From Thermoanaerobaculia bacterium (GTDB lineage Bacteria > Acidobacteriota > Thermoanaerobaculia > Gp7-AA8), in NCBI GenBank assembly GCA_036261885.1, contig DATAJY010000015.1:274877-338876 (forward strand): a DNA stretch of 64,000 nt, read 5' to 3'. Positions within the stretch are counted from its first letter, which is position 1. The number at the start of each line of letters is the position of its first letter. The position numbers were made by a program, and so were the translations under genes. The notes below the pieces were generated by a model. The model searched no databases and was not told the origin of the DNA. It saw only the letters and a program-made list of their open reading frames with translations. Positions 2,916 to 61,120 of this stretch are shown piece by piece.

Positions 2916-2919
2916 CGCG

Positions 2920-5763: not shown

Positions 5764-5821
5764 CGATTGAACGAAGAGTGCCGCGACTCGCCCGGATAAT
5801 CAATATGGAAACGAAGCGCCG

Positions 5822-6982: not shown

Positions 6983-7021
6983 GTTGGCTCCGATTCTATC
7001 GTCGCGGTCCTGTTGCACGAT

Positions 7022-13621: not shown

Positions 13622-13679
13622 CGATTTGGACTCCGGATTTGGGGTTGACCGCCTGGACCTCTGGTCCGGCATGGTAGGG

Positions 13680-14528: not shown

Positions 14529-14597
14529 GGCGCATTGTGCACCGGGAACGCCGCCGCTCTCAGACGGAAGCAGGACGGGCGGGTTTACACTCCGCGC

Positions 14598-15071
14598 ATG
14601 GATTTCAATCGGATCATCAAAGCGGTCGTGGTCCTCGGCCTCGTGCTGTTCGTCTGGAAAGCGGGGTTGCCGTGGCTGAAGAAGCAGAACTTCGGCGGCT
14701 CCACCGCGTCGAGCAGCGCCACCGGCAGGAGCGGCGCCGAGTCGTCGTGCATTCGCAGCGCGGAGAACGCATCGGGCGCCTGGGGCAACGGCATCGGCCG
14801 CTTCGTGAATCCGCCGTACGACACCAGCGCGTGGGCGAGCTTCCGCTCCGACGTCGAATCGAAGATCGGCAATGCGGAGTCGGCGTGCAGCTGCACGCAG
14901 GAGTCGTGCGAGAAAGTGCGCACCTCGATGCGCGAATTGCGCGGCCTGATCTCCGAGATCGACGGCGCCATCCGCGGGAACGGCTCGTTCCCCGAAGACG
15001 CGGTGGCGCGGCAGGAACGGATCGATACGCTCATCAATGAAGCGGGAGACCTCGTGAGGGCAGGCAAGTAG
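14598..15071 (+). CDS. Small membrane-anchored hypothetical protein
   Basis: In-frame ATG at 14598 inside ORF 13719..15071 (MDFNRIIKAVVVLGLVLFVWKAGLPWLKK). The upstream part of that ORF is antisense to the methyltransferase. The composition looks protein-like rather than shadow-like. Its stop overlaps the GTG start of the next gene. Confidence 0.5.
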   Translation: MDFNRIIKAVVVLGLVLFVWKAGLPWLKKQNFGGSTASSSATGRSGAESSCIRSAENASGAWGNGIGRFVNPPYDTSAWASFRSDVESKIGNAESACSCTQESCEKVRTSMRELRGLISEIDGAIRGNGSFPEDAVARQERIDTLINEAGDLVRAGK

Positions 15072-39667: not shown

Positions 39668-39950
39668 CGCGCGCGCTGGCGCCGCCCGTCAGTGATGAGG
39701 GACCAGTCGTTGCTCGACCAGTGATGAGCGATGAGTGATGAGGTAAGACACGCATCGCGAGTGCTGACCCCTCGCTGAAATGACGTCATTTCGCACAGCG
39801 TGACGCTTGCAACACCTGTCGAACCTCATCGCACATCACTCATCGCTGGCCCCACGAACACGCGCAGTTCTGACGACACGCCTGACGCGCCACGCAACCC
39901 CGCTATCATCCACCGGTCAGATTCGGAAACCCGGAGGATCGATCGTGCTG

Positions 39951-46019: not shown

Positions 46020-46463
46020 ATGGCGTCTTCGATGGGCAATCTCTTCCATTCGTCGCGGCTGCGCTGGATCGCGGAGCGCGCGACCACCGCGGTGTTGGTG
46101 CTCGGTACGCTGGCGCTGCTCGTCTGGCCGCGCTCGGTCGAGCGCATCACCGGCGTGCGCGAATCGTCGCCGCTCGCCTCGCCGGACGATCTGCCGGCGC
46201 TTTCGAAAGACGACGCCACTCCATTTTTCCAGTCGCGCAATCAGGTGGAGATCCGTGTGGCGGAAGCGACGACGCTGCGGCAGTTCCTCGATCGCAATCG
46301 ACTGAACAAGCCGTACCAGCGTCAACAGATCACCGCCCAGCTCGGCAACACGAGTCCCGATGCGCCGATCGCGGCCGGCACCGTGTTCCGCTTGTCGCTC
46401 ACGCCGGTGGCGGTCGACGTGCCGGGCGCACGTCCGGCCACCGCCGCCGAGGAACAGCCGTGA
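46020..46463 (+). CDS. Small membrane-anchored protein (147 aa), first gene of the GTPase/SEDS/PBP operon
   Basis: TM helix AVLVLGTLALLVW. Its stop overlaps the next start (TGATG at 46461-46465). Confidence 0.55.
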   Translation: MASSMGNLFHSSRLRWIAERATTAVLVLGTLALLVWPRSVERITGVRESSPLASPDDLPALSKDDATPFFQSRNQVEIRVAEATTLRQFLDRNRLNKPYQRQQITAQLGNTSPDAPIAAGTVFRLSLTPVAVDVPGARPATAAEEQP

Positions 46464-47509
46464 TGCGGTTCCTCTGCAAGGACTGCTGGCTTTCGCACAG
46501 CGAAGAGACGCTGCTGGCGCGCTGCAAACGCTGCGAGGCGAACACGCGCATCCAGCGTTTCGAGCCGCTCAGTGCGAAAGCCGGTCGCGGCGTGGCGCGC
46601 GGGCCGCTGGTCTGCAGGATTCATCCGACCGAGCCGCTCGACATCTTCTGCGGCGATTGCGAGCGCGCGGTGCCGCCGCGCACGATCATCGGCGATCGCA
46701 GCATCGTGGCCATCCTCGGCGATACGGCTTCGGGAAAAACGTCGTATCTCTGGATCCTCAGCGAACAACTTCGCCGCGCGCACGACGGCATCTTCATTCG
46801 CCAGGCCCTCGGCGATTCGGACGAGCAGCTTGCGAAAGCGGCGCGCGCGATCTTCGAGCGCGGTCGCATGTCGGCGACCGAGCCGACCGACGCGGACGTT
46901 CGCAATTACGCGTGGGAGCTCGCTCTCGGCGAGCGCGCCACGACCGTGATCGCCTTTCACGACGCCGCGGGCGAGGTGTGGAACGAGCTCTCCGGACTCT
47001 CGCGCACCACCTACGATCGCTTCTATCGCTATCTCGATCTGGTCGGCAGCCTGATCTTCGCCATCGATGGCGCGCACGTCGCCGCGGCGCTCGATGCCGA
47101 GGCGCGTCGTGGTGTCACGCCGCCGCTCTCGCGGGAAGCGCAGGTACACGAGCTGGCCATCGTCGATGCCGTGGCACGGCGGTTTCGCGCGCGCGGCGAG
47201 CGCATTCCGGTCGCCGCGGTGCTGACCAAGGGCGACGTGCTGTGGGACCGCGACGACTATCAATGCTTTCGCCCCGACAGCGATGCGGACGGCGAGACGA
47301 TCGGCCGTGCGGTGCGCGAGTTGATGAACAGATCGGGACGCGTGGCGCTCGTGCGTGCGCTCGAAGAAACGTTCGCGCCGGTGACCTGGTTCGCGATCTC
47401 CGCGTTCGGTCATTCGGTGAGCGAGCCGCTGCGGATCGAAGACGTGCGGCCGTCGCGTGTCGCCGATCCGCTGCTGGCCCTGCTCGGCAATCTCGTCACG
47501 CGGACCTAG
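46463..47509 (+). CDS. Zinc-ribbon small GTPase (paralog 1)
   Basis: 348 aa. N-terminal CxxC...CxxC (CKDCWLS...CKRCEAN) plus a second Cys cluster (FCGDCERA). G1 ILGDTASGKTS. G3 VIAFHDAAGE. G4 LTKGD. Confidence 0.8.
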   Translation: MRFLCKDCWLSHSEETLLARCKRCEANTRIQRFEPLSAKAGRGVARGPLVCRIHPTEPLDIFCGDCERAVPPRTIIGDRSIVAILGDTASGKTSYLWILSEQLRRAHDGIFIRQALGDSDEQLAKAARAIFERGRMSATEPTDADVRNYAWELALGERATTVIAFHDAAGEVWNELSGLSRTTYDRFYRYLDLVGSLIFAIDGAHVAAALDAEARRGVTPPLSREAQVHELAIVDAVARRFRARGERIPVAAVLTKGDVLWDRDDYQCFRPDSDADGETIGRAVRELMNRSGRVALVRALEETFAPVTWFAISAFGHSVSEPLRIEDVRPSRVADPLLALLGNLVTRT

Positions 47510-47511
47510 CG

Positions 47512-49212
47512 ATGGCCGACGCCGAGATCCTGCATCGCCTCTACACGAACGCCGCCGAGGAAGGGGCTTTCGATGGCGCGCGCGGGCGGGTGGTGGAGGT
47601 GGAGGAGCGTGATGCATCGCGCGTCGTTCCGCCCGATGTATTGGCCGCGCTCGACGATCTGTTGCGCAAGACCTCGCCGTCGTCGACGCAGACCGGCTGG
47701 GCGGTGCGGCGTTTCGCGAAAGGAAATCAGTCGTACGCGTGCGTCATCACGTCGTATCCCGATCTCGTCGATGCCGCGGACGGTCGCGCCGGCATGCTCA
47801 ATCACGCCCGGCTCATCGTCGTCGATGCACCGTCGTTCGATGTCTCGGCCCTGATCGAAGTGGCGGATGATTTTCCGATCGCCGACGTCTGCGCCGTTCC
47901 TTCGACGCGACGGTTGCGCGCGTATTTGAATGAAATCGCCAATGAATCGGGAGTGCTCGTGCGTCCGGTCTCGCTGAGCGAGCTGCAGCAGGAGCCGCGT
48001 GACCTGCTCGCCGACGTGCTCCTCGGCTGTCTGGCCGCGCTTGGACGTCGCGAGCATGTGCCGATGTCGATCGCGGACGCGCGTGCCATCGCGGTGGCCC
48101 GCGCGTGGGCCGCGCTGCCGCTCGCCACGCAGCGCACGAGCTCGTGGGCCGTCGGCGTGAAGGAGAGCTGTCCCGTCGACGTGATTTTCTCGACCTCGCA
48201 CGGCCAGGCGCCGGTGCATACGGGCTCGAAGGCGCTCGTCGATTGCGTGAAGCAGTACGTGCACCTCTTGCACGCCGCCCCCGAAACGGTGAACGCGATG
48301 CTCACCAACGCGTCGCTCTCCGACAAGACCGCGTTCGCGGCCGCGGTGCAGCGCGCCGCGATCGCTCCCGAAGTGTCGTCGATGGCAGGAAGGGAAGAGA
48401 TGACGAAAAAGGAACGGGCCACGAAGGCGGAGACGCGCGAGCCGCGCACCGAATGGCAACCGCTCGATGCCGACGTGCGCGCGGAGCTGAATCGCCAGTT
48501 CAAGGCGATGGAGGAGGTGCTGCGCCGCACGATCGACGAGCGGCTGGCGGCGTTCGAGGCAAAGCAGCGCGCGCAGGCGCCGTCGCGCAACGAACGGGCG
48601 ACGCTGGCGGGCTCGCTGCTGCCGGTCTGGATCACCGCCGGCATCTTCGTGCTCGCGGCGCTGGCGTGGCTCGGCTACCGTACGTTCGGTCCGCGAAATG
48701 AGCCCGCGCAGCGGCCGTCGTCGTACACGGAGCGCGAGCGTTACGAGGTGAGCGAGCCGGAGCCGAGCACCACGAACGAAGCGCCGCCGTTGAATCCCGT
48801 GCAGTCCGCGATCGCGCGGGCCGAGTCGACGCCGAGTCTCTGGCCCGATGAATTCAAGGCCCTGCTCGAGAACGATCGGGACTTCGTCGCCGGCGCCGTC
48901 AGCGCCGTCGCCGCTCGCGATGAAGTGCCGCGCGATGCGAAAGCCGCGCTCGCGAACTTCGCCACGCGCATCGCCCGCGGCGAGGATCTGCAGGCGGCCG
49001 GCCGCGAGAAATTGCGCGCGCTGCTGCTCGACTGTCTGGCCTCGGACGTCGACGGTGCAAAGGTGAAGATCGACGGCAAGCTCAATGACGTCGCGCCGTA
49101 TCTCGACGCGTTGAAGAAGCGCTATCGCACGAGCAGCACCAGCGATGACGCGACGCAGATGTCGCTGCAGAGCGAGCTCCTCCTGCGCTGGTTGTCGGAG
49201 CGCGAGCGATGA
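47512..49212 (+). CDS. Bitopic protein (566 aa): N-terminal possible roadblock/LC7-like domain, central TM, Ala/Glu/Arg-rich helical C-terminal region
   Basis: ATG at 47512, 3 nt after the upstream stop. TM LLPVWITAGIFVLAALAWLGY. The N-terminal ~120 aa have an alternating beta/alpha pattern (GRVVEV...ACVITSY...ARLIVVDAP). The roadblock assignment is tentative. Confidence 0.65.
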   Translation: MADAEILHRLYTNAAEEGAFDGARGRVVEVEERDASRVVPPDVLAALDDLLRKTSPSSTQTGWAVRRFAKGNQSYACVITSYPDLVDAADGRAGMLNHARLIVVDAPSFDVSALIEVADDFPIADVCAVPSTRRLRAYLNEIANESGVLVRPVSLSELQQEPRDLLADVLLGCLAALGRREHVPMSIADARAIAVARAWAALPLATQRTSSWAVGVKESCPVDVIFSTSHGQAPVHTGSKALVDCVKQYVHLLHAAPETVNAMLTNASLSDKTAFAAAVQRAAIAPEVSSMAGREEMTKKERATKAETREPRTEWQPLDADVRAELNRQFKAMEEVLRRTIDERLAAFEAKQRAQAPSRNERATLAGSLLPVWITAGIFVLAALAWLGYRTFGPRNEPAQRPSSYTERERYEVSEPEPSTTNEAPPLNPVQSAIARAESTPSLWPDEFKALLENDRDFVAGAVSAVAARDEVPRDAKAALANFATRIARGEDLQAAGREKLRALLLDCLASDVDGAKVKIDGKLNDVAPYLDALKKRYRTSSTSDDATQMSLQSELLLRWLSERER

Positions 49213-51938
49213 CGTTGTACCGGATCGAGCACGCGCTGGTGATGGACACCGACGACGTGCCGGGCCGCGGCGGCTACGCCGTGACCGGCATCTCGCCTCG
49301 CGTCTCGCCGGCCGAGCGCTCGTTCATCGCCGGCAACTTCGGCATCAGCGATTACCTGCACGATCCGAAAACCGAGAACCGCATTTTCTATGCGGTGTTC
49401 CGCATTCCCGGCGGCCGTCGCGCGTTCGTGCGCCGCTTCGCGCGCGGTACGGAGCTGCGCCGCAACAACACGCAGCGCCGCCTCGTCGTGCATACGCTGC
49501 TGCTCGATGACGACGTCTGGCAGGAACTGCACGCGTTGCCGTGGCTGCTGCTCAACGCGAGCGTACGACTCGAAGGCGCAACGTCGTGGGATCGTCTGCG
49601 TGCCGACGTTCCGTGGACCGATGACGGCTCGACGCTGCCGGCGCTCGAATGGGACAGCAGCGACGGAGCGGCCGCGAATGCCTGGAAGCGTCTCACCGAT
49701 CGCCTCGGCCTCATCGAGCATGGCGAGCCGCGCGATCTCATCGCGCGCATCCTCACCGCGATGTCGGCGCGCGCCCGCGTCGCGCTGCCGCAGGATGCCG
49801 GCTGGGAGTGGGCCACGATGCTGGCGTGGTCGATGTTGCCGCGCCACGACCGCGATGACCTCGGCTGGACGCAGCACGATTCGATGAATCTCACCGGCAT
49901 CGCGTTCGCGCTCGCCAACGTGCCGGGCGGAGACTTTCACGCATCGCAGGTGCAGCCGGCGAATTTCGCGCACGAGCTCGTGCAGATGAATGTCGAGTCC
50001 GAACGCTCGTGGCTCGATCTGCAGGGCCGCACGTCGCGGCACCCGTTGAGCGTGCGCCACGCCGGCGATCTCGAAAAGTGGGGGAAGTGGCGCAACGCGC
50101 TCCTCGATCTGCACACGCACATCCGCGGCTCGGAAGATGAAGTGGTGCGCTACATGCGCAAGCTCGCGCTGACCGTGAAGGCGAATCCGCGCGCGACGTG
50201 GATCGACGCCGAGGAAGTGCTGCGGCTGGTGTGGTCGAACGTGGCTCAGGACATTCGCGGCGGCGACGCCGTGGCGGTGACGCGGTGGGGACAGCGGCTG
50301 CGCGAAAGCGGGCTGGCCGACGTCGTCTTCGGCGCCGTGCCCGCGAAACACTGGCTCAACGCGGCGGCGAACGACATCGGCAGCGATGCCCTCGTCTGGT
50401 TCTTTCTCAGCGGCGGCGGCGAAGACGAGTCGGCGCGCGGCGCGCGTGCGGCCATCGCCGAATGGCTCGTCGAGACGCGCCTGCACGGCGTCACACCTGA
50501 GCGCGCCACGATGCTGGCGCAGCTGTTGTCGAACGATTACGCGCGGCCGCTCGTGCCGCTGCTCGAACAGTTGCTGGCCACACCCGAAGGGCTGGCCGCG
50601 CTCATCGAGTCCCTCGGCCGTCGCGAGCACGGCGGCCTGGAACTGCTGCATGCCGCGGCGCCGATCGTCGTTGCACGCGCGCATCCGAACGCGCGGGAGT
50701 TTCTGCGCGATCTCTTCGTGCCCCGCTTCGAGCGCACGCGCATCGACGCGAAGCTGGCCCGCGCCATCGCCCTGCTCGTTCGCGACGATGCCGCCACGCT
50801 GCTGCAGTTTCTCGCGCGCGTGCCGACCGACGTCGCCGGTCCGGTGGCGATGTCGCTCGCGCAGGCGGGGCAGCCGGCCAGCGTCTGGCTCGACGTGCTG
50901 TTGCGCATGGCGAAGTCGATCGACGAAGAGAACGACGCCGGCGGCGCGCGCGACTTCGCCGAGATGATGCGCGCGCTCACCGCACGCGAGCCGCTGCTCG
51001 ACGGCGCGATGTCGCGATTCATCGACTTCGTCGCGACCGAACGCCCGCGCGCCCGCGAGTCGATGCGGTCCATCGTCGCGTTGCTGCGCCCCGTCTGGCC
51101 GCAGGGCGGCAGCAAATTCGGGGCCGCGTTGATCGCGCTTCTGCAGCGGGCGCCGAATGCCATCGCGTGGGAAGAGCTCGTCGTCGCGTACGCGAACGAA
51201 CAACGCGCGAAACGGCCCGACGACGTGTCGGAGCTCGCCTCGGTCTGGTGGTGTCTCGTCGAGCCGGATCTGGCCACGCGGAGCGGCGCGCTGCTCGACG
51301 TCATCCGCGGCGACGGCCTTCGCCGTCTCACGGCGCACTGGTCGAAGAAGGTCGGCACGCTGTCGCCGTCTCCCGTGGCCGACAAGCTGCTGGCGCTGGT
51401 GCAGCATCACTCCGATTCGTTCGAGGTCGAGCGCGATCTCGCCTCGCGCGACGTCCGGCACGGCGTGGCGAACGTGCAGACGCTCAATCGTCTCGAGGCC
51501 GCGCTGGCGCGTGTCCATGCAGCGAAAGGATCGCGCCTGTTCGTCGACGACGCACGCGTGTTTCTCGGAGACGGACCGGCCACGCGCGCGGTGCGGCTGC
51601 TGAAAGTGCTTTCGTCCGACGACGTCCATCCGACTGTCCGTCTGGCGTTCCTGCAGCATCTCCTTCCCGAGGTACTGGCGTCACTCCGGAAGGGAGACTT
51701 CGAGGAAGTGAAGCAGCAGACGCGCGAGGAAGATCTGCTCGGACTCGGGGTGGTCGTGCGGCTCGCGTACGCCGTCGGGGCGCGCGCGAGCGGCAGTACG
51801 AGCGCCGGCTTCGAGGCGGTGTGGGTGCGCAACAAACGCAGCGATGCGCTCGATGCATTGCAGGCCGGACGCGCCACGCGCGGTCCGCTGCGCTGGCTCA
51901 CGAGCAGGATGAGGAGCGATGGCCCGGTACAGATGTGA
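49209..51938 (+). CDS. Large (909 aa) predominantly alpha-helical (ARM/HEAT-like) hypothetical protein
   Basis: ATGA overlap with the upstream stop. Leu/Ala/Arg-rich helical repeat composition across ~800 aa. No catalytic motif recognised. Confidence 0.65.
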   Translation: MTLYRIEHALVMDTDDVPGRGGYAVTGISPRVSPAERSFIAGNFGISDYLHDPKTENRIFYAVFRIPGGRRAFVRRFARGTELRRNNTQRRLVVHTLLLDDDVWQELHALPWLLLNASVRLEGATSWDRLRADVPWTDDGSTLPALEWDSSDGAAANAWKRLTDRLGLIEHGEPRDLIARILTAMSARARVALPQDAGWEWATMLAWSMLPRHDRDDLGWTQHDSMNLTGIAFALANVPGGDFHASQVQPANFAHELVQMNVESERSWLDLQGRTSRHPLSVRHAGDLEKWGKWRNALLDLHTHIRGSEDEVVRYMRKLALTVKANPRATWIDAEEVLRLVWSNVAQDIRGGDAVAVTRWGQRLRESGLADVVFGAVPAKHWLNAAANDIGSDALVWFFLSGGGEDESARGARAAIAEWLVETRLHGVTPERATMLAQLLSNDYARPLVPLLEQLLATPEGLAALIESLGRREHGGLELLHAAAPIVVARAHPNAREFLRDLFVPRFERTRIDAKLARAIALLVRDDAATLLQFLARVPTDVAGPVAMSLAQAGQPASVWLDVLLRMAKSIDEENDAGGARDFAEMMRALTAREPLLDGAMSRFIDFVATERPRARESMRSIVALLRPVWPQGGSKFGAALIALLQRAPNAIAWEELVVAYANEQRAKRPDDVSELASVWWCLVEPDLATRSGALLDVIRGDGLRRLTAHWSKKVGTLSPSPVADKLLALVQHHSDSFEVERDLASRDVRHGVANVQTLNRLEAALARVHAAKGSRLFVDDARVFLGDGPATRAVRLLKVLSSDDVHPTVRLAFLQHLLPEVLASLRKGDFEEVKQQTREEDLLGLGVVVRLAYAVGARASGSTSAGFEAVWVRNKRSDALDALQAGRATRGPLRWLTSRMRSDGPVQM

Positions 51939-53016
51939 GAACTGCAACGAGCTCCGCGACGCGGCGATCTGCCCGAAGTGCGGCGCCGACACGCATCGTC
52001 TCGACGAGCAGGCGAGGGACGATCGCAGCACGCCGTCGCTCGACGATCTCGCGTCGCGCGTGAGTCAGCGCGCCGCGGCCACGGAAGCGCCGAAGCCGGC
52101 GCCCGCGCCGCTGCCGGCCGCGCCGCCGCCGGCTCCCGCGGCGCAGCCGCATTCGCAGGCCGTGCCGCCGAGCACGATCATCGGTCTCGACGAATTCCAC
52201 GCGCTGCTCGATCGCGGCACCGAGGCGGTGATCATCTGCGGCGCCGCGCAGACGGGCAAATCGGAGATCGCGGCCGGATACATCCGCGCGAACACGGTCT
52301 ATCGCGGCAAGGCGCAGAACCTCACGTTGCGCGCGGTACTGCGCACCGATTACGCGCTCGGCGGCACCGCGCCCGACGAAGTCTGGTACCAGATCATCGA
52401 CGACAAGAAAGCGTTTCTCGATCCCTCGGGCGAGTTCTTTCGCCGTCTCTCGCCCGATGAGCGAATCCGCTACGGGCTGCCCGATGTGACCGAGGAGAAC
52501 TTTCAGTTCGTGCAGCGCGCGGTGAGCAGACTGGCCGGCATCGTCGTCGTCGTCGATCTCACCTCCGCGATCGATCCGCGCGCCTCGGCGCCGTGGCGCC
52601 GGCAGGAAGACGATCTGAAGTTCGTCCTCTCCGCGCTGCGCTGGCTGCGCTGGGATCACACGGCCCGCCCTGATGCGATCGGGCTGTCGACGAACATCGC
52701 GCAACGGGTGTCGATGTTTCCTCGTATCGACAAGCGGGTGCTCGTGCTTTTCTCGAAAGCGGATCAACTGCCGAAATACACGAATCAGACGCCGCTCGAC
52801 TTCGCGCGGCAGCGGCTGCCGGTGCTCCACGCCGCGCTGATGACGCACGCGAAGCGCTTTCGCTACGACTTCTGCAACACGATGATCAAGACCGAGAGCG
52901 GTGATCAGGCCGTCGATCCTTGCGGCGTGTTGCTGCCGGTGAACTGGCTGCTCGATGACTCGTTCGACTGGCTGCCGCTGCAACTGCCGACGAGCCTCAT
53001 CGGAGGCGGACAGTGA
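51919..53016 (+). CDS. Zinc-ribbon small GTPase (paralog 2)
   Basis: 365 aa. MARYRCENCNELRDAAICPKCGAD zinc ribbon. G1 IICGAAQTGKSE. G3 FLDPSGE. G4 FSKAD. 20-nt overlap with the upstream gene. Confidence 0.8.
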   Translation: MARYRCENCNELRDAAICPKCGADTHRLDEQARDDRSTPSLDDLASRVSQRAAATEAPKPAPAPLPAAPPPAPAAQPHSQAVPPSTIIGLDEFHALLDRGTEAVIICGAAQTGKSEIAAGYIRANTVYRGKAQNLTLRAVLRTDYALGGTAPDEVWYQIIDDKKAFLDPSGEFFRRLSPDERIRYGLPDVTEENFQFVQRAVSRLAGIVVVVDLTSAIDPRASAPWRRQEDDLKFVLSALRWLRWDHTARPDAIGLSTNIAQRVSMFPRIDKRVLVLFSKADQLPKYTNQTPLDFARQRLPVLHAALMTHAKRFRYDFCNTMIKTESGDQAVDPCGVLLPVNWLLDDSFDWLPLQLPTSLIGGGQ

Positions 53017-54821
53017 AATCGAAGGGGAAGCGGCAACTGCAATCTCCCGATCGCGTGTGGTTCCGCGCCGCGCTCGCGGGCACGGTCCTTCTCGCCGCGT
53101 CGCTGGCGTGGTGGTTCTACGCGCATCAGGTCTCGAAGCGGAGCATCGAAGGGGCGCTCACCGCCGGCGCGCGCGAAGAGCTGGCCGCGTTGCCGGTGCC
53201 GGCGATCCGGACCGCGGAAGTGGAACGCTCGTGGGTCGCGGAAGGATTTTCGAGCGAGTCGCTCGTCGCGCCGGTCGGGCCGATGCCGTGTGCCGGTGTC
53301 GTCGACGCCGTGGCCCCGGCCGATCAGAACGTTCTGCGCGAAGCGCTGGCCGCCGCCGCGCAGCCGGATGCCGACGTGCGCATCGAACAGCTGGCGTCGA
53401 TCCACGACGGCGCGCCGCGCAACCTTCTGGTTGCGCAAATGCTCGGCACCGCGCTGGTCGAGGAAGGGCGCTATCCGGAGGGGGAGAGCGTGCTCACCCG
53501 TGGGCTCGAGCAATCGGGTGAGGACGAGACCATCATCCGCGCCGCGCGCGTCAACACGCAGCTCGATCTCGACGATCTCTCCGTCTCGACCGTCATTCAC
53601 CTGCACCACGCCCTCGGCGTCGCGCGGCTCTCGCAGTCGTCCGCCGAGCCGCCGTGGGTCTCGCTCAAGAACGTCATCGGCTCGGTGAAGCCGCTCGCGA
53701 AACGGCGGCTGCTCGGCACGACGCGCGGCCAGCCGGCGTGGAGCCGTCTGCTCATCGCCGCGCCCGGCTGCGCACCGAATGCGTCCCCGCGCGCGCTGTC
53801 GACGTACGACCTCTTCAACAACCTCGTGGTCGGCTACATGCGCGGCACGTTCACCGGCACGAATCGCGATCGCGACCGCGAGTTCTCACGGCCGCGCAAG
53901 AACTATCCGGGCGCGATCCACAAACTCCTGCTCGTCCAGGTCGGACGTGCGAAGGCGAACGACTGGGCCAATGAGGCGCAGCTCTGGGCACTCTCCAACG
54001 TCGAGCAGATCATCGACTGGCGCATGCCCGACGACGCGCGGCTCGCGTTCAATTCCGTGCAGGTCATCGACTGGTGGACCGCGCCGGAACGCTGTCCCGC
54101 CGATGCCTGCACGCCGCAGCTGCTCGGCGAGATCAATAAGGTTCGCGATCAACTCGTCGAGCAGGTGTTCCGGCGCCGCAACGTCGATGAAGAACAGCGC
54201 GGCGCATTCGCTCGCGGTGCCGTGCGACTGCTCGCCACCTCTTCGCTCGATCGCTCGCGCATCGCCGATGCCGCGACCGCGATTCGCGAGTGGCTGCCGC
54301 CCGCGGAACGCCGCACGCTCGACGATCTGCTGAACGCCGATGCCGCGCGCCGCGCCATGCCGCGCCATCTCTTCGCGCCGCAAGCGGCGGACGCGCCGAA
54401 CGCGGATGACGCGCCGCCGCCGGCCGAGCCGCCGTACGCGAAGCTCGGCGCGCGCGCCGACAAATGGCGCGCCGCGGCATTGACGGATGTCGCCGCCATG
54501 GCCGCGAAATGGGCCTCGCAGCGTCCGCCCGCGGAACAGCGCGCCGCGCTCGTGGCCATCCGCCAGCTGCTCGGCGGCGCGGAGGCGCCGCCGGAACTGC
54601 TGCAGCTCGAACGGCAACGCTCGTTCTTCGACCGGCTGCGGTTGCGCATCGTCGCGTCGAAGGCGTACTGGGCTTTCCTGGCGATCGTTCTCGGCCTCTC
54701 GATCTGGTTCGTATTGCTTTGGATTCTCGTGCATGTGCGCGAGGCGCGGCTGCTGCGCGTGTCGCTCTACAACGTCGAACACGAGTACCTCGCGGGGATC
54801 GAGCGCGACCCGCGCCGCTGA
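53013..54821 (+). CDS. Membrane-associated helical protein (602 aa) with N- and C-terminal TM segments
   Basis: GTG start overlapping the upstream stop. TM AALAGTVLLAASLAWWFY. C-terminal TM AYWAFLAIVLGLSIWFVLLWILVHV. The central region is helical and repeat-like. Confidence 0.65.
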   Translation: MKSKGKRQLQSPDRVWFRAALAGTVLLAASLAWWFYAHQVSKRSIEGALTAGAREELAALPVPAIRTAEVERSWVAEGFSSESLVAPVGPMPCAGVVDAVAPADQNVLREALAAAAQPDADVRIEQLASIHDGAPRNLLVAQMLGTALVEEGRYPEGESVLTRGLEQSGEDETIIRAARVNTQLDLDDLSVSTVIHLHHALGVARLSQSSAEPPWVSLKNVIGSVKPLAKRRLLGTTRGQPAWSRLLIAAPGCAPNASPRALSTYDLFNNLVVGYMRGTFTGTNRDRDREFSRPRKNYPGAIHKLLLVQVGRAKANDWANEAQLWALSNVEQIIDWRMPDDARLAFNSVQVIDWWTAPERCPADACTPQLLGEINKVRDQLVEQVFRRRNVDEEQRGAFARGAVRLLATSSLDRSRIADAATAIREWLPPAERRTLDDLLNADAARRAMPRHLFAPQAADAPNADDAPPPAEPPYAKLGARADKWRAAALTDVAAMAAKWASQRPPAEQRAALVAIRQLLGGAEAPPELLQLERQRSFFDRLRLRIVASKAYWAFLAIVLGLSIWFVLLWILVHVREARLLRVSLYNVEHEYLAGIERDPRR

Positions 54822-54828
54822 CGGAGAA

Positions 54829-57588
54829 ATGATGCTGAACTGGACCAGCGTACTGCTGCTCGTGGGACCGGTGGTCCTGCTGCTGATGACGCTTCGCCAC
54901 AACGACGCGCGCCGCCCGGCCGCGTTCCCCGGCCTGCTCTTCGTCTACGTGCTCTGCGCCGCGACGCCGCTCGTCTTCGCGTTGCTGTGGCGGCTCGATG
55001 CCACGCGCGCGTCGATCGAGCTGCATGGCATCGCCTTTCGTACGAGCGGCGCGAACGCGGTGCAGAAGGAGATTCGCGAGCGGCGTGCGAACAGCGGCCG
55101 CATCGTCATCGGCGATCCGGTCTCGCGCCGGACGCGCGCGCAGCAGCGCACCTTCGGCACACTGCACTTCACACCGGCGAAGGCGAGTGCCAGCGGCGCG
55201 CTGCGCATCGATCTCCCGCCGCGCGAACGCCGCTCCGGCCTGATCTCGACGAACGCGACCGGAATCCTCGGCGCGGAGTTGCTGCAGGACGGCGACTCGA
55301 TCTGCATCGGCGGCAGCTGCTGGACGTACGACCAGGGCGATCGCTCGTTCACGCACGCGAAAAACACGATCGCGATTCCGGCCCGTCAGGCCGAACTGCC
55401 GGGACTGGACTGGAGCTTCACGCTTCCGTTCGCGAAACCGATCTCCGCCGGACTGCGCACCTGGTCGGTCGATTTTCTGGCGCGGCAGAGCGGCGCGATC
55501 GCACCGGAGCGCCGGCTGCGCTCGTTCATCGCCCATTCGAATCCTGGTGCCGCGCTGCGTCTCGTCGCACTCGACGAAGACGTGAACCTCGTGCGCAACG
55601 GGGCCCGCGTGCAGACGCCGGTCCGCTTCGACGTCGAGGACGGCGCACGCGTCGCCTTCTACTCCTTGCCGGGCGAGTCGGCGCAGTTCGCCGCCCCCGG
55701 CATCGCCGAGCGTCGCAGCATGATCTATCGCGCCGGCGAGCGCAGCTTCGTGCTCGATCTCGACACGCCCGAGATTCACACGCTGACGATCGACGAACTG
55801 CAGGCGCTCGAGCTGGCGCAGGAGAAAGGGGCAACGCGCAAGAAAATCGCGCTGGCGATGGGCGATGCGGAGCTCGTCGATCGCAGTCTCTATTTCAACG
55901 GTCTCAGCGAATCGGTGGCTGTTGAATCGAATGCGCTGCTCGAGCTCTCGCGTTTCTTCCCGCGCGATTTCGCATCCGCCTTCCGCATCATTTCGCCGCG
56001 CGGACCGGTCGACGCGCAACTCGGCCGCGTGCAGTGGATCGGCACGTCCGATCTCGCGGCCGTGCGGCTCGATGTGCTCCGTCCGCCGCTGCTCCTGCTC
56101 GCGCTCGGAATCGTGCTGCTGCTTTTCAAAGCGGGCGCGGCGTCGGCGATCGGATTGACGGCGACGCAGGCGCTGATGGCCGGCGCAATCGAGTTGCTCT
56201 GCGGCATTCGCCTGCTGATGGGCTGGCGGGTCTGGGCCATGCCGCCGCACAAACTCGAGGCGGCCGAGCTGGCCATGGTGGCGTGGATGGCGCTGCCGTG
56301 GATCTTTCTTGCGGCGATGATCCCGCTGCGCTCGTTGCGCGACTGGCGTGACGCGCGCGTCTCCGCCGCACCGGCGCTGGCGGGGCTCGTCTTCTCCGCG
56401 GTCTTCTGCGCGCGCAGCGTCGCCGGCCCGACGAAATGGGTGTGGGTGCTCTGTCATCTGCTGCCGCTGCTGGCCGTGCTGCTGCGCACCGACGAAGCGC
56501 GCGGGCGATTCGCGAAGCTCGCCGCGCGCGTGAGAACGTGGACCGCGCGCTCGAAACGTTTCGATCCGGAGTTGCTGCCGATCGTCATCGCGGCCGTGCT
56601 CTTCACGCTCGTCCGTCTGATCCTCCTCGCGTTCGGCTGGAAGGAGTCGGCGAGCCTCGGCGTGCGCGTCTCGCTCAGCGTGCTGCACCTCCCCGCGGCC
56701 GTGATCCTGCAGGGCATTTTTCTCTGGCGCACGTGGCAGCGCGTCCTGAAGAACGGCCGATTGCTGAAGGCCGATCTCATCACCGCCGCGGTGATTCTCG
56801 TTTTCGTGTGGGGCTTGCCGGCGGCGATCACCAGCGACGTCGGTCTGGCACTGCTCAACGCGCCGCTGTTCGTGTTGATGCTGCTCGCGATCAGCCGTCA
56901 CGCCGACGAGCGCGCCGGCCGCTGGATTCCACGCCTGCTCGTGGCGATGGTCGTGCTGCTGCTGGCCGGCGGCCCGCTCGCGCGACTGATCCTGCCGCTG
57001 TTCGCCAGCGATGAACTGCTGCTCTCCGCGGCGTCCGATTCCAACTTCGCGCGCGTGCTGCACTTCGCCGCGCCCGAACGCCTGCAGGAGCTGGCGACGA
57101 AACGCGGCGAGTCGCTGGCCATCACCTCCGCGATTCTGCAGAGCTACATCAGCTCCGGCTTCTTCGGCCGCGGCTACGGCCGCTCGGAGGTCAGTCCGCA
57201 TCTCGGCGATACCGCGTTGCGCGACTTCGCCCCCGCGGTCTTCATCGCCGCGGAGTGGGGATTCGCCGGCACCGTCGCCGCGCTGCTCATCTATCTGCTG
57301 TTCGGCATCATCGCCAGCGAGTGGCTGCCGTGGAGCGCCTCGCGTGTCGACGGGCATCCCGGCCCGGCCATCGCGTTCGTCGCCGCGGCCACGATCGCGG
57401 TCTCGAGCATCTACATGATCCTCGCGAACCACGAGCTGCTGCTGCTCACCGGCAAGAATGCGTACCTCTTCGGACTCGATTCGGCCGGCGACGTGATCGA
57501 GATGATCGTGCTGATTCTGCTCATCGCCTGCGGCTCGAGCGTCGTGCGCGAGGAGTCGCAGGCACTCACGTACGGAGACTACGCATGA
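54829..57588 (+). CDS. SEDS (RodA/FtsW)-like polytopic membrane protein with ~450-aa N-terminal extension (possible FHA-like segment)
   Basis: 919 aa. ATG 54829 (MMLNWTSVLLLVGPVVLLLMTL). More than 10 TM helices in the C-terminal half. SEDS signature RDFAPAVFIAAEWGFAGTVAALLIYLLFGII (compare RodA TDFIFAVLAEELGLVG...). N-terminal extension has ...LISTNATGILGAELLQDGDSICIGGSCWTY (FHA-like pattern). Confidence 0.75.
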   Translation: MMLNWTSVLLLVGPVVLLLMTLRHNDARRPAAFPGLLFVYVLCAATPLVFALLWRLDATRASIELHGIAFRTSGANAVQKEIRERRANSGRIVIGDPVSRRTRAQQRTFGTLHFTPAKASASGALRIDLPPRERRSGLISTNATGILGAELLQDGDSICIGGSCWTYDQGDRSFTHAKNTIAIPARQAELPGLDWSFTLPFAKPISAGLRTWSVDFLARQSGAIAPERRLRSFIAHSNPGAALRLVALDEDVNLVRNGARVQTPVRFDVEDGARVAFYSLPGESAQFAAPGIAERRSMIYRAGERSFVLDLDTPEIHTLTIDELQALELAQEKGATRKKIALAMGDAELVDRSLYFNGLSESVAVESNALLELSRFFPRDFASAFRIISPRGPVDAQLGRVQWIGTSDLAAVRLDVLRPPLLLLALGIVLLLFKAGAASAIGLTATQALMAGAIELLCGIRLLMGWRVWAMPPHKLEAAELAMVAWMALPWIFLAAMIPLRSLRDWRDARVSAAPALAGLVFSAVFCARSVAGPTKWVWVLCHLLPLLAVLLRTDEARGRFAKLAARVRTWTARSKRFDPELLPIVIAAVLFTLVRLILLAFGWKESASLGVRVSLSVLHLPAAVILQGIFLWRTWQRVLKNGRLLKADLITAAVILVFVWGLPAAITSDVGLALLNAPLFVLMLLAISRHADERAGRWIPRLLVAMVVLLLAGGPLARLILPLFASDELLLSAASDSNFARVLHFAAPERLQELATKRGESLAITSAILQSYISSGFFGRGYGRSEVSPHLGDTALRDFAPAVFIAAEWGFAGTVAALLIYLLFGIIASEWLPWSASRVDGHPGPAIAFVAAATIAVSSIYMILANHELLLLTGKNAYLFGLDSAGDVIEMIVLILLIACGSSVVREESQALTYGDYA

Positions 57589-60503
57589 CGCCGCGCGGAA
57601 AAATGCTGCTGACCATCTTCGGCATCGCCGTCGTCGCCCTGCTGTGGTGGCGCCAGCGTAACGAGCCGTTGTCGTACTACTCGTCGCGCAGCTACGTGCA
57701 GCGGACGAACGATCTCATTCGCCGCGGCGCGCTCCGTTTCGATTGCGCGGCCGATGAGATCCGGATGACCGATCGTGCGAACGATGCGGAACGGGCGTGG
57801 TTCGCGGCCAGCTATCTGCAGAACGACGTCGAGCTGTTCAATCGCAATCGCGAGTTGTTCGGACACTTCTTCGTCGTCTCCGACTGCGAGCTGCGCGAGA
57901 TCAATCCATTCCTGCGCACCATCCGGCTGCCGTTCGCGAAGTCGACCGAATGGCTCGGCAACATCGAGTACACCGGCCCCGGCTCCGATGCGGCACTGAT
58001 CTCGGCGAACGGCCGCACGCTGGCCATCGAACGGAATGCGGCGGCGGATGGGCTGGCCGGGATCCGTGAGGATGTGCGCACCCGCGTCGGCGATTCCGAG
58101 AGTCTCAGCGGCAGCGTGTTGCACATCGATTTCGCCGGACGCGGGCAGACGCCGGGCGTCGAAGTGCACAACGTCGAAGGGACGGCCATCGTCGAACAAC
58201 GCGTGAAGCGCGGCCAGGCCGCGGAGGTCCGTCTCCTCGGCAACGCCATGAACGAAGGACGGATCACGAAGCTCGAAACCGGAGACTGGCTGCATCTCTC
58301 CGCCGAGTCGCCGGTGCCGCGTTCCGAAACGTTTCTCTACAGCGCCGAACGCCGTTACGAACGCCTGAGCACCGTCCGCACGCGCAACGCGCGGCGCGAG
58401 CGCGTCTTCACCGAAGACGATCCGCTGCTGCAGTGGGTCGGCGGCGATGAAGGGGAGGAGATGCTCACGTTCGGCGAGGCGCTCGCGCGCAGCGTCACGA
58501 ACGCACTGCAGCAGATCGATCCGATGCGCGCCGACGAATTGCGCGAAGGCTTCGACGTGCAGCTCAGCATCGATCGTCCGCTGCAGTCGAAGCTCGACGC
58601 GACGCTGGCCAGTCACGCGAACCGGCTCGTGAACGACGTTGCCGCGGGCGATCCGTTCGCCGCCTCGGTGACGATCATGAACGGCAGGACCGGCGAAGTG
58701 CTCGCGGCCGCGAGCTTTCCCGGCGAAGCCGATCTCGAGGCGATGACCGGCGTTTCGGAGGACGAGCGCCGGCGGCTGCTCGTCAATCACAACTTCAAAC
58801 GGCATCCGATCGGCTCGGCCGGCAAGCCCTTCTTTTACGCCGCGGCCGCGACGCGTCATCCGTTCCTGCTCGACCTCACGGTCGCGCCGCACCTGCCGGT
58901 CGAGCGTCCCGATGGCGGCGAAGGGGAACGCGAGGTGCTGCAGTTCTTCCTCGGCCGCGACTACAAGCTCTGGCCGCACGCCGATGCACCGATCGACATG
59001 CAGTCGGCCATCGAGCGCTCGTGCAACAAATTCACGGTGGAACTGGCGACGCTCGCGCTCGCCGCGCCGCGCGATCTGACGGAACGCACGCTCACGCGTC
59101 CACTCGCTCAGGTCTTCGCGCGACAGGCGAACGTGGTCTGGCCGAAGCCGGGCGTTGTCTTCGATGGTCCGCGCATCAACGGGCAGCCGGTCGATTTTCC
59201 GATCGACCTCGGCGTCTACATGAAGGACGACGGACAGCCGGTCGGCCCGCGCGAAGAGACCACCGCGGTGGTCACGCCGGGCACGCTCGATCGCATCGAC
59301 GAGGCGCCGTTCATCGAAGCATTCGGCGATCTCACCGGCGTGCGGACGTACGCCGGTCTCGACGCGCCGAACGTGCCGAAGGAAGGGAACGAAGGGCTCA
59401 CGCGCACGGCTCTTCACTACGACCTCCGCCCCTGGTCGAAGCTGCTGACCATGCTGATGCAGGGAGAGGATGAAGAGCACGCGTGGAAAGTGCGCGCCGC
59501 GCTGCAATCCGTTTCGCCGGAACGGGTGAACCTCTCGCTCAATCAGGTCACCGAGTTCCGCACGGAGCTCGTCTCGCTGCTCCTCGGCGGCTCGACGTCG
59601 CAATGGACGAACGTGCAGCTCGCCGAAGCGTTGTCGCGACTCGTCACCGGCCGGCAGATCGAAGCGTCGATGGTCCACACGGTGCGTCCGCGCAAAGGAG
59701 CGGTCGAAGAGCCGATCGCCGTGGCGCCGCCGCTGTCGCCACAGACGATCTCTCCGGAAGCGCGGACCACCGTCTTGCGCGGCATGAGACGCGTGATCCT
59801 CGGCGCGCACGGCACGGCCTTGCCGATGGCCGCGCGCGTGCACGAGCTCGAACGGCAATTTCCCGGATACAACGTGGCGGTCTTTTCGAAGACCGGCTCG
59901 CCGACCGTGCAGCGTCCGGAGAGCAAGCCGACCGGCGAGATCCTGCGGCAGCTCGTGCGCCGCGGCTATCTCTTCTATGACGGGAAGCAGCTCGTGGTGT
60001 CGACCGATCGGCAGAAGGCGGCCGTGCCATACGCCGCGCGCGGCACGAAGGGTCGGGCCGCGTTTCTCGACGCGCTCACGCGCGCCTCGCGCATCGCCGC
60101 ACGTCAGCTGGGCCGCAGCGCCGGTCCGCGCACCATTCCGCGCATCGCCTCGTACGCCGATCGCTTCTCGCGCTATCGCAGCCGGCTGGTGTTCGTTTCG
60201 CCGGCCGCGGTGCGGCTCGATGAGGCAGCCTCGTCGCCGATCCACGTCGTGGCCGGCTCGCTGGTGCTCAATCGCGATCACTCGATTTTCGACAAGACGC
60301 AGCAGGCCGATTCGAGTGCCGCGTACGTGATGTCGATCGTGAAGTGGCGCGGCAGCGGCGAGATCCCGACGCCCGAGGAGCTGGATCAGCCCGATGCGCG
60401 CGTCGTGACGGCGGTTTTCTATCTCGACATCGGACCAGGGAGCGCGGTGGCGGTGGAGCTCGCACGGACGATCGTGCCGGAGCTCGTGCCGCTTCTGCAA
60501 TGA
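57585..60503 (+). CDS. Class-B penicillin-binding-protein-like transpeptidase (972 aa, membrane-anchored, with long insertions)
   Basis: ATGA overlap with the SEDS-like gene. TM MLLTIFGIAVVALLWW. SxxK IGSAGKPFF. SxN ERSCNKF. KTG VAVFSKTGSPT. VTIMNGRTGEVLAAASFP is typical of the bPBP pedestal/TP junction. Confidence 0.8.
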   Translation: MTPRGKMLLTIFGIAVVALLWWRQRNEPLSYYSSRSYVQRTNDLIRRGALRFDCAADEIRMTDRANDAERAWFAASYLQNDVELFNRNRELFGHFFVVSDCELREINPFLRTIRLPFAKSTEWLGNIEYTGPGSDAALISANGRTLAIERNAAADGLAGIREDVRTRVGDSESLSGSVLHIDFAGRGQTPGVEVHNVEGTAIVEQRVKRGQAAEVRLLGNAMNEGRITKLETGDWLHLSAESPVPRSETFLYSAERRYERLSTVRTRNARRERVFTEDDPLLQWVGGDEGEEMLTFGEALARSVTNALQQIDPMRADELREGFDVQLSIDRPLQSKLDATLASHANRLVNDVAAGDPFAASVTIMNGRTGEVLAAASFPGEADLEAMTGVSEDERRRLLVNHNFKRHPIGSAGKPFFYAAAATRHPFLLDLTVAPHLPVERPDGGEGEREVLQFFLGRDYKLWPHADAPIDMQSAIERSCNKFTVELATLALAAPRDLTERTLTRPLAQVFARQANVVWPKPGVVFDGPRINGQPVDFPIDLGVYMKDDGQPVGPREETTAVVTPGTLDRIDEAPFIEAFGDLTGVRTYAGLDAPNVPKEGNEGLTRTALHYDLRPWSKLLTMLMQGEDEEHAWKVRAALQSVSPERVNLSLNQVTEFRTELVSLLLGGSTSQWTNVQLAEALSRLVTGRQIEASMVHTVRPRKGAVEEPIAVAPPLSPQTISPEARTTVLRGMRRVILGAHGTALPMAARVHELERQFPGYNVAVFSKTGSPTVQRPESKPTGEILRQLVRRGYLFYDGKQLVVSTDRQKAAVPYAARGTKGRAAFLDALTRASRIAARQLGRSAGPRTIPRIASYADRFSRYRSRLVFVSPAAVRLDEAASSPIHVVAGSLVLNRDHSIFDKTQQADSSAAYVMSIVKWRGSGEIPTPEELDQPDARVVTAVFYLDIGPGSAVAVELARTIVPELVPLLQ

Positions 60504-61120
60504 AGAACGGCATCGTCGCGCTGCTTCTCTTCTCGCTGCAACTCGGCGATCTGCGGCGCAGCGTGCCGGTCTCGGAGCGGCCGCTCGCCGAGACGCCGCG
60601 CACGCCGACGCTCGTGGCGATGAAACACTTTCCGCCGCAGACGCGGCCGCGATCGCGTGCGTTCTTCCGCAGCCCCGCGCATGAAGACGCGGCGCTGATC
60701 GCCGTCACCGGCACGCGCCGCAACAACGTTCCGGTCGCCCGCGACTTCCCGCGCCTGTGGCGTCGCGCCGCTCCGTCGCGGCGCATCTACATCGCCTTTG
60801 CGCGCCGCGACCTCGCGGCCGCGCAGAACGTGGAGCGTGCGCTGGCGCGCCGCGGATACCACTGCTTCATTTTTCTGGCCTCCGCGCGCAACAACCCCGC
60901 GTGGGCCGACTCCGTCGAGCTCGGACGCTACTACCGCGAAGCGCGCACGCGCCTCGTGCTCGATTCGCGCAACGCCCGCGCCGCGAACGGCGTGCGCCTG
61001 GAACTGCTCGCGCAGGGGCGCAAGTCCTGCTGCAAACGCTGCTACTTCATGAACGGCATGCTCGCCGGATGCGACGCCATCACCTGCGGGACGCAGTGCG
61101 CGAAAGCCCGCGGGGCCTGA
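60500..61120 (+). CDS. Small secreted/anchored protein with TIR-like core and Cys-rich C-terminus (speculative domain call)
   Basis: ATGA overlap with the PBP-like stop. Hydrophobic N-terminus IVALLLFSLQL. RRIYIAFARRDLAAAQNVERALARRGYHCFIF resembles a TIR beta-A/alpha-A start. C-terminal CCKRCYFMNGMLAGCDAITCGTQC. Confidence 0.5.
   Translation: MKNGIVALLLFSLQLGDLRRSVPVSERPLAETPRTPTLVAMKHFPPQTRPRSRAFFRSPAHEDAALIAVTGTRRNNVPVARDFPRLWRRAAPSRRIYIAFARRDLAAAQNVERALARRGYHCFIFLASARNNPAWADSVELGRYYREARTRLVLDSRNARAANGVRLELLAQGRKSCCKRCYFMNGMLAGCDAITCGTQCAKARGA

Follow-up and report, generated by a model that had tools for sequence, protein, structure and literature searches.

The 64,000-nucleotide stretch of Thermoanaerobaculia DNA analysed here, hereafter the window, carries on its plus strand a run of nine open reading frames (ORFs), g1 to g9, at positions 46020-61120. 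The run places two zinc-ribbon GTPases in one cluster with a predicted pair of wall-building proteins, namely a SEDS-type glycosyltransferase (g7) and a transpeptidase resembling penicillin-binding proteins of class B (bPBPs) (g8). All nine ORFs reported by the initial annotation were confirmed at their coordinates, as were the sizes of 919 amino acids (aa) for g7 and 972 aa for g8. The genes are as follows:

g1, 46020-46463, plus strand: 147 aa, small membrane protein
g2, 46463-47509, plus strand: 348 aa, predicted DO-GTPase
g3, 47512-49212, plus strand: 566 aa, predicted bitopic protein
g4, 49209-51938, plus strand: 909 aa, putatively GAP1-like, soluble
g5, 51919-53016, plus strand: 365 aa, second, paralogous DO-GTPase (predicted)
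g6, 53013-54821, plus strand: 602 aa, predicted transmembrane (TM) segment at each end
g7, 54829-57588, plus strand: 919 aa, divergent SEDS-type glycosyltransferase (predicted)
g8, 57585-60503, plus strand: 972 aa, class-B PBP-like D,D-transpeptidase (predicted)
g9, 60500-61120, plus strand: 206 aa, lineage-specific add-on, weakly TIR-like

The g1/g2 junction is TGATG, with a 1-nt overlap. ATGA overlaps join g3 to g4 (49209), g7 to g8 (57585) and g8 to g9 (60500), while g5 and g6 share GTGA at 53013 and g4 and g5 overlap by 20 nt at 51919. Six of the eight junctions had been described exactly, but the g2/g3 gap is 2 nt rather than 3, and the g6/g7 gap 7 nt rather than 8. The GC content is uniform across the window (0.63-0.70). 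A promoter scan returned no sigma-70-like sites, and terminator-like sites stood near background.

In GenBank, a metagenome-assembled genome (MAG) of a Thermoanaerobaculia bacterium holds exact sequences for seven of the eight operon proteins looked up (VHW00_21615-21655, 428-kb contig); g1 is an exact match to HEX2835626.1. The protein g2 has a full-length match of 100% identity in the same MAG, found among the g2 homologues. With the start used here, g7 has no exact GenBank entry, and its start is probably called differently there. The deposited names are only 'hypothetical protein' or 'zinc ribbon domain-containing protein'. The suggestion that the system was undescribed is borne out, as the cluster is without annotation in GenBank and a literature search gave no paper on it.

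Conservation was followed by a locus scan of one genome per GTDB species, with extra loci added through protein look-ups. The species scan gave 20 loci, all from Acidobacteriota and nearly all from Thermoanaerobaculia. The order of g1 to g8 is unchanged in the 11 complete Thermoanaerobaculia loci, where neighbouring genes overlap or abut, and the loci truncated by contig ends are consistent with this order. Identity to the window proteins is highest for g8 (58-81%) and g7 (49-76%), while g3 and g4 show the lowest values, 27-35% in genomes further removed. Eight additional loci, with GC contents of 41-73%, were reached by way of remote full-length g8 homologues (28-40% identity); in these, hidden Markov models of g2, g4, g5, g6, g7 and g8 recovered the same order of ORFs wherever the contig extended far enough. 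Two of the distant loci come from Ca. Thiomargarita nelsonii or close relatives, and the cluster of one distant locus includes a Longimicrobium sp. (Gemmatimonadota) protein; the module spans at least three bacterial phyla. This arrangement is far beyond chance, and the linkage of GTPases, SEDS protein and PBP, whose conservation the initial annotation had proposed to test, recurs in the 11 complete and the eight distant loci. The family is at the same time rare and patchy, with 81-92 clusters (90% identity) among 5.8 billion clusters. The proposed nine-gene unit is better described as eight genes: g1 to g8 are conserved, whereas g9 is found only in the window and in its two closest relatives (L006 and L007).

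The protein g8 matches TIGR03423 (PBP2) at E 1.8e-12 and lies just over the cut-off of PF00905. Aligned by hhalign with E. coli PBP2 (probability 83%, E 9e-6), its S411 falls on S330, the active-site serine of the E. coli enzyme. The motifs S411-A-G-K414 (SxxK), S479-C-N481 (SxN) and K769-T-G771 (KTG) are invariant in 16 orthologues, and the catalytic motifs stay invariant in 37 sequences with identity down to 28%. The AlphaFold2 model of g8 is of good quality (pLDDT 85, pTM 0.84). In fold, the transpeptidase domain is nearest to bPBPs, and not to class-A PBPs or beta-lactamases. The protein has a predicted N-terminal TM anchor, a beta-rich N-domain and insertions inside the transpeptidase domain. 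The class-B-PBP-like assignment is thus upheld by family matches and by all catalytic motifs, and by its sequence g8 is shown to be a class-B PBP with a predicted intact acyl-serine active site. Both g7 and g8 are two to three times the canonical size, as first described, and carry extra domains. The two genes are adjacent in every locus that reaches that far, except L019.

The layout of g7 comprises two TM segments, a beta-rich domain of about 360 aa, three extra helices and a 10-TM SEDS core (about residues 503-904), in which the ten-helix SEDS membrane fold was found. The protein itself gave no match in Pfam (E <= 0.1), NCBIfam, PADLOC or PDB (phmmer; family profile). Its orthologues are more informative: ten of them, 55-80% identical to g7, match PF01098 at E 3.7e-9 to 6.4e-6, and seven of the ten exceed the cut-off of 26.4 bits, over profile positions of about 135-324 of 356. 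Because the orthologous family matches PF01098, g7 is placed in the SEDS family by extension, and the proposed SEDS-like identity stands. Comparison of the g7 family with single E. coli RodA or FtsW sequences by hhalign gave a short, weak local alignment that served only to locate the acidic motif; g7 ALRDFAPAVFIAAEWG falls on RodA ERHTDFIFAVLAEELG and D799 on D262 (weak, E 0.013). RodA D262 is an essential acidic residue that opens TM8, just past the large loop on the extracellular side. Position 799 of g7 is always acidic, being D in Thermoanaerobaculia and E in the distant loci, and E606, D670 and a C-terminal FTGKNxYLxGLDS motif are conserved across all phyla. The loop charges of the family follow the positive-inside rule and fit a 10-TM SEDS core. 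At the level of sequence, g7 is shown to be a homologue of SEDS-fold lipid-II polymerases. Its beta-rich domain would be periplasmic, provided that the helix at 445-468 spans the membrane.

One loop of g7 deserves separate mention. Residues 553-582 (window 56485-56574), predicted to be cytoplasmic, are strongly basic, with a family mean net charge of +5.6. Loop length varies widely, and some orthologues, P0010 and P0054 among them, carry inserts here that reach about 100 residues. The cytoplasmic components may dock on this loop.

On the cytoplasmic side, g2 belongs to the Pfam family DO-GTPase2 (PF19993; E 2.7e-12, 47.3 bits against a cut-off of 27), which is present in almost all g2 homologues listed. 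Its N-terminus carries two CxxC...CxxC zinc ribbons, whose eight zinc ligands are invariant in the alignment, as are the motifs GxxxxGKT, DAAGE and (T/S)KxD. In g5, a single zinc ribbon and a Pro-rich linker are combined with a GTPase domain that has invariant GxxxxGK(S/T), DPSGE (DxxGE) and SKxD motifs in its alignment; two g5 orthologues match DO-GTPase1 weakly. In a profile-profile comparison the g2 and g5 families match with a probability of 92.7% (E 4e-7). Two paralogous zinc-ribbon GTPases with intact G1, G3 and G4 motifs are therefore present, as had been claimed; the motif alignments and the g2/g5 profile match support this. They are not Ras-family in the strict sense, and the label 'Ras-like' does not survive the 47-bit match of g2 to DO-GTPase2. 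Both GTPases, like g4, are soluble and have no TM segment. A glutamate after DxxG, zinc ribbons and paired paralogues are hallmarks of the 'double GTPase' systems of Kaur et al. 2020 (PMC7159879). The system as a whole had been called unrecognised; this holds for the cluster, of which no description was found in the literature searched, but its GTPase half falls among the predicted DO-GTPase/GAP1 systems.

The protein encoded between the GTPases, g4, is largely helical, and the matches of its orthologues point to an N-domain of the N2 type. Five of ten g4 orthologues match the Pfam family GAP1-N2 (best E 2.8e-5). An exhaustive search of representative sequences with g4 alone as the query yielded 26 relatives, three of which match GAP1-M (best 2.9e-4) and two GAP1-N2. 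GAP1-C was not matched by g4 or the relatives scanned, while the size and position of g4 fit GAP1. The family is rare, with 55 clusters among 1.84 billion representatives. We regard g4 as GAP1-like with moderate confidence, judging by these profile matches.

The neighbouring g3 has a single TM segment at 369-387 by hydropathy, which would place about 368 N-terminal aa in the cytoplasm and about 180 C-terminal aa in the periplasm. It evolves fast (27-53% identity to orthologues). Neither g3 nor its 11 orthologues match any Pfam family or the Roadblock profile at E <= 0.1, and the proposed 'roadblock-like' N-domain accordingly finds no support. A paralogous relation between the N-domains of g3 and g4 was also rejected, at a profile comparison probability of 0.9%. 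At L001 (positions 2366-7030 of a 5.08-Mb Acidobacteriota contig) the equivalents of g3 and g4 form a single fused protein of 1554 aa, P0178. Because L001 encodes the two as a fusion, it supports a physical association of g3 with g4.

Two further membrane proteins complete the conserved set. The first, g1, has one N-terminal TM segment (residues 17-35, by hydropathy) and no match in Pfam, NCBIfam or PADLOC; it heads the operon in 10 Thermoanaerobaculia loci (44-79% identity) and was also detected in L019. In g6, the C-terminal TM segment is found by hydropathy, whereas the N-terminal one was read by eye and lies below the hydropathy threshold; the middle of about 510 aa would be periplasmic. 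Matches to TPR-type repeats occur in three of 14 g6 orthologues (best E 3.9e-7). In the tail after the last TM segment, Y586 and E589 (window 54768-54779) are invariant across phyla at an overall identity of 18-26%.

The last gene, g9, encodes a hydrophobic N-terminus, a weak TIR-like region at about 96-169 and a Cys-rich C-terminal tail. The TIR-like assignment is consistent in three orthologues, which match TIR_2 at E 0.0053, 0.0012 and 0.032, but all fall below threshold (15-20 bits against a cut-off of 28) and cover only profile positions 1-76 of 122. No PDB sequence match to g9 was found. With its narrow distribution, g9 is a lineage-specific addition that lies outside the mechanism and the conserved core.

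The slot after g8 holds other genes elsewhere. At L033, the gene at 13015-14829 on the plus strand encodes a fusion of a caspase (Peptidase_C14, E 7e-20) with a bacterial SH3 domain; it starts 6 nt after the g8 orthologue and fills the same slot as g9. At L035, RuvX and YceG/MltG follow g8, and in other loci opposite-strand or unrelated genes do. The protein directly downstream of g8 in L016 was compared as a possible g9 relative and rejected. Two downstream neighbourhoods look like defence islands: L031 (13077-22883) has an HTH-Peptidase_M78 protein, SLFN_AlbA_2/HATPase_c_4, a 1747-aa DEAD/Helicase_C/MZB protein and a Pkinase-TPR protein, and L034 (12986-22811) has WD40-Peptidase_C13 giants, PemK and AAA_15 with DUF4276.

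Around the operon in the window, the upstream flank encodes an MFS transporter, HlyD, two MacB/FtsX permeases and a Calx-beta repeat protein of 2035 aa; mre, dcw and mur genes are absent from the window flanks. The ORF of the repeat protein (39807-45914, plus strand) has 11 Calx-beta repeats and a beta-helix region and ends 105 nt upstream of the operon. In L009 no Calx-beta ORF stands at the syntenic position, and the MacB/FtsX genes adjoin the operon. Other giants with beta-sandwich repeats are found downstream in L005 (fn3/PKD, 2444 aa) and upstream in L002 (PKD/SpaA/Laminin_G). Such giants could be loose analogues of the FNIII component of GAP1-N2 systems, or a coincidence; none is a conserved member of the module. 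Downstream, a poly-HAMP signalling protein with at least four HAMP units begins at 62151 on the plus strand and runs off the window end at 64000; L006 and L021 also keep this gene downstream of their operons. For the window copy of the operon, an origin from a mobile element or island was rejected, given its flat GC content, the absence of integrases and transposases from the flanks scanned, and flanking genes that are common to close relatives and only to these.

In some loci the operon itself departs from the common form. L019 (that is, L002; 4802-12553) is a divergent variant of about 34% identity, with equivalents of g1, g2, g5, g6 and g7 and without a PBP gene; after its g7 stands a MarR-acetyltransferase gene. 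In L009 (that is, L005) the equivalents of g3, g4 and g8 are frame-split, and in L025 that of g7. We suspect assembly frameshifts in both, because their 'contig_' record names are typical of long-read assemblers; real pseudogenisation is the alternative.

Taken together, these results firmly support a real, conserved, rare and multi-phylum module composed of a DO-GTPase pair, a GAP1-like protein, three membrane proteins and a SEDS-bPBP pair with strongly constrained catalytic residues. As to its function, we lean, by a little over an even balance, towards reading g1 to g8 as one envelope-spanning machine, an accessory peptidoglycan synthase under a GTP switch. The GTPases g2 and g5 together with g4 would form the cytoplasmic switch. 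The membrane proteins g3 and g6, and perhaps g1, would carry its nucleotide state across the membrane to the periplasm, g3 through its large cytoplasmic N-domain and g6 through its periplasmic TPR domain and conserved cytoplasmic tail. The periplasmic parts of g3 and g6, with the beta-rich domain of g7, would then act on the N-domain of g8 and on the SEDS polymerase, and wall synthesis by g7-g8 would be licensed in one GTPase state only. MreC activates RodA-PBP2, and FtsQLB and FtsN activate FtsW-FtsI; the proposed step may be likened to the release of these enzymes by their activators. The role of such a machine is most likely conditional, either wall repair and reinforcement or triggered septation and containment, and not housekeeping growth.

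Beside the composition and the conserved linkage of the operon described above, further lines of evidence argue for the accessory synthase. The enzymes look active and constant, because the catalytic residues are invariant at 28-35% identity and g7 and g8 are the most conserved members, at 50-81% against 27-35% for g3 and g4 in the same genome pairs. The patchy and rare distribution and the lack of dcw or mre context in the window point to accessory status. Coupling across the membrane is suggested by the TM predictions, the positive-inside loop charges of g7 and the invariant residues of the g6 tail. Several points weigh against it. The window g4 has no Pfam match of its own, and its GAP1 assignment rests on sub-threshold matches. 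The side of the membrane on which the g7 beta-rich domain lies depends on helix 445-468, which is weakly hydrophobic. The variant L019 has the GTPases, g6 and g7 and lacks g8. Every step of the signal flow is drawn from domain content and predicted topology, and the signalling could be reversed, from the periplasm to the cytoplasm.

The strongest competitor, which we consider possible though unlikely, is a conflict system for anti-phage defence or containment, of the DO-GTPase/GAP1-N2 class. Here invaders would be sensed by the fast-evolving g3 and g4, with the GTPases as a threshold switch. The effector would be the SEDS-bPBP pair: by making aberrant or additional wall, or a septum, it would seal off the infected cell or kill it. 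Further effectors particular to a lineage, such as the TIR-like g9 or the caspase, would sometimes be added. Such a role agrees with the prediction of DO-GTPase/GAP1 systems as conflict systems acting near the membrane or cell wall (PMC7159879), with the much faster evolution of g3 and g4 than of the remaining operon, and with the variable downstream slot (TIR-like g9; caspase-SH3 in L033). The defence-island-like neighbours at L031 and L034 (M78-HTH, SLFN/AlbA_2, DEAD-MZB helicase, PemK, AAA_15/DUF4276) point the same way, and the patchy cross-phylum distribution suggests horizontal transfer. However, effectors vary in such systems, whereas the putative effectors g7 and g8 are constant and the most conserved of all. 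None of the nine proteins matches a PADLOC defence-system model, the FNIII-repeat protein typical of GAP1-N2 systems is not among g1 to g9, and the neighbours elsewhere are ordinary (RuvX-YceG/MltG at L035, transporters in the window, FKBP at L001). The flanks common to close relatives are consistent with vertical descent, and we know of no conflict system with wall synthesis as its output. We think it rather unlikely that an 'immune-type' DO-GTPase/GAP1 switch, with g3 and g4 sensing the trigger, fires the SEDS-bPBP synthase to wall off or entomb a compromised cell; if true, this would be the first nucleotide-switch system of that type whose output is construction and not destruction. In more general terms, such a system would add to the MreB-guided elongasome and the FtsZ-guided divisome a third way of controlling SEDS-bPBP pairs, scaffolded by GTPases.

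It is improbable, in our judgement, that the module is an outside-in envelope sensor whose purpose is not to polymerise new wall. In such a sensor, damage to the wall, beta-lactams or muropeptides would be recognised by the PBP-like g8, much as by the PBP-like domain of BlaR1/MecR1, in concert with g7, g6 and the portion of g3 in the periplasm; the signal would pass through the membrane proteins to the GTPase/GAP1 switch, which would control a cytoplasmic response. An acyl-serine site would also persist in a sensor, several components combine large periplasmic parts with short conserved cytoplasmic tails, and cytoplasmic add-ons such as the TIR-like g9 could be outputs. A pure sensor would nevertheless have no need of a full SEDS core with conserved acidic residues in its periplasmic loops (E606, D670, D/E799), the conserved core lacks a constant cytoplasmic output enzyme, and g9, hydrophobic at its N-terminus, occurs in a single sub-lineage. 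Very improbable is a diverged housekeeping synthase of the elongasome or divisome (RodA-PBP2 or FtsW-FtsI) that happens to lie beside an unrelated GTPase operon. The ATGA overlap of g7 and g8 does recall cognate SEDS-bPBP pairs, the catalytic motifs are intact, and RuvX and YceG/MltG come after the pair at L035. Yet the GTPase/GAP1 linkage is kept in every complete locus, and because it survives across three phyla an accidental neighbourhood is unlikely. The window flanks lack mreBCD, dcw and mur genes, occurrence of the family is rare and patchy, and its proteins, with their extra domains, reach two to three times canonical size; in general, canonical rodA-mrdA and ftsW-ftsI are also present in Acidobacteriota and Gammaproteobacteria.

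SEDS-bPBP pairs are core wall-building enzymes of bacteria and major antibiotic targets, and to our knowledge the known pairs all work under actin-like (MreB) or tubulin-like (FtsZ) machineries and periplasmic activators. A third and highly divergent pair, tied by a conserved operon to two GTPases as well as a GAP1-like protein, suggests that control can follow another logic. The DO-GTPase/GAP1 systems, for their part, of which we know no experimental characterisation, gain a first partner with defined and assayable biochemistry, namely lipid-II polymerisation, cross-linking and beta-lactam binding. Two questions become testable, that is, what DO-GTPase systems do and in what other ways SEDS enzymes can be switched. 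The hosts are all uncultured or hard to handle, so such tests would go through heterologous reconstitution.

Among known systems, the closest to the GTPase half are the 'GTPase-centric' DO-GTPase/GAP1-N2 systems, which are computational predictions (Kaur, Burroughs, Iyer and Aravind 2020, eLife; PMC7159879). The module shares with them two paralogous TRAFAC-type GTPases with DxxGE and with zinc ribbons at the N-terminus (g2 has two), a large and putatively GAP1-like protein downstream of them (on a weak GAP1 match), several TM components that suggest action at the membrane or cell wall, and a patchy spread over several phyla. It differs in having no FNIII-repeat protein (no fn3 match in g1 to g9) and no tubulin, HSP70 or kinase theme, and in that the g6 to g8 partners are constant and well conserved where those systems have highly variable effectors; only the slot after g8 varies here. 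Acidobacteriota, Gemmatimonadota and Thiomargarita are not listed for GAP1-N2 in that work, whose text and one supplement contain no FtsW, RodA, PBP, transpeptidase or Acidobacteria terms (PMC7159879). In our literature search, the DO-GTPase/GAP1 terms were confined to Kaur et al. save for one passing mention, and nothing relevant was returned for SEDS or PBPs in combination with GTPases, gene neighbourhoods, anti-phage systems or Acidobacteria; GTPase is also missing as a term from a global survey of SEDS and bPBPs of 2025.

The synthase half invites comparison with RodA-PBP2, FtsW-FtsI and SpoVE-SpoVD. Like these, it has a predicted SEDS fold in g7, with an acidic loop motif that aligns with RodA D262, a bPBP fold in g8 with SxxK, SxN and KTG, and adjacent, overlapping genes in the order SEDS then PBP. 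Unlike the canonical pairs, g7 has five extra helices and a beta-rich domain of about 360 aa, g8 has a different N-domain and insertions, and the sequences share very little similarity; MreBCD or FtsQLBN/dcw context is lacking, and GTPases are found instead of actin- or tubulin-like scaffolds. WaaL and other O-antigen ligases are GT-C fold relatives of SEDS. The actinobacterial operon fhaA-fhaB-pstP-rodA-pbpA-pknA-pknB encodes SEDS and PBP proteins of canonical size, controlled by Ser/Thr phosphorylation with FHA readers. As there, a SEDS-bPBP pair shares one operon with dedicated cytoplasmic regulators of wall synthesis, but the regulation here would be a GTPase/GAP1 switch and not phosphorylation. 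That a small-GTPase system can direct the place and time of SEDS-type wall synthesis has a precedent in the Ras-like polarity module MglA/MglB of Myxococcus, which a preprint describes as guiding wall synthesis by the Rod complex in spore germination (bioRxiv 10.1101/818641). MglA is Ras-like whereas the GTPases here are of the DO-GTPase type, no Roadblock/LC7 domain was detected here, and neither rodA nor pbp2 is linked to the genes of MglA/MglB. On these comparisons, we rate the module in two ways: it adds a new theme to the predicted DO-GTPase systems of the GAP1-N2 kind, and its SEDS-bPBP pairs form a giant subfamily that is itself new and is associated with a regulator of a new type.

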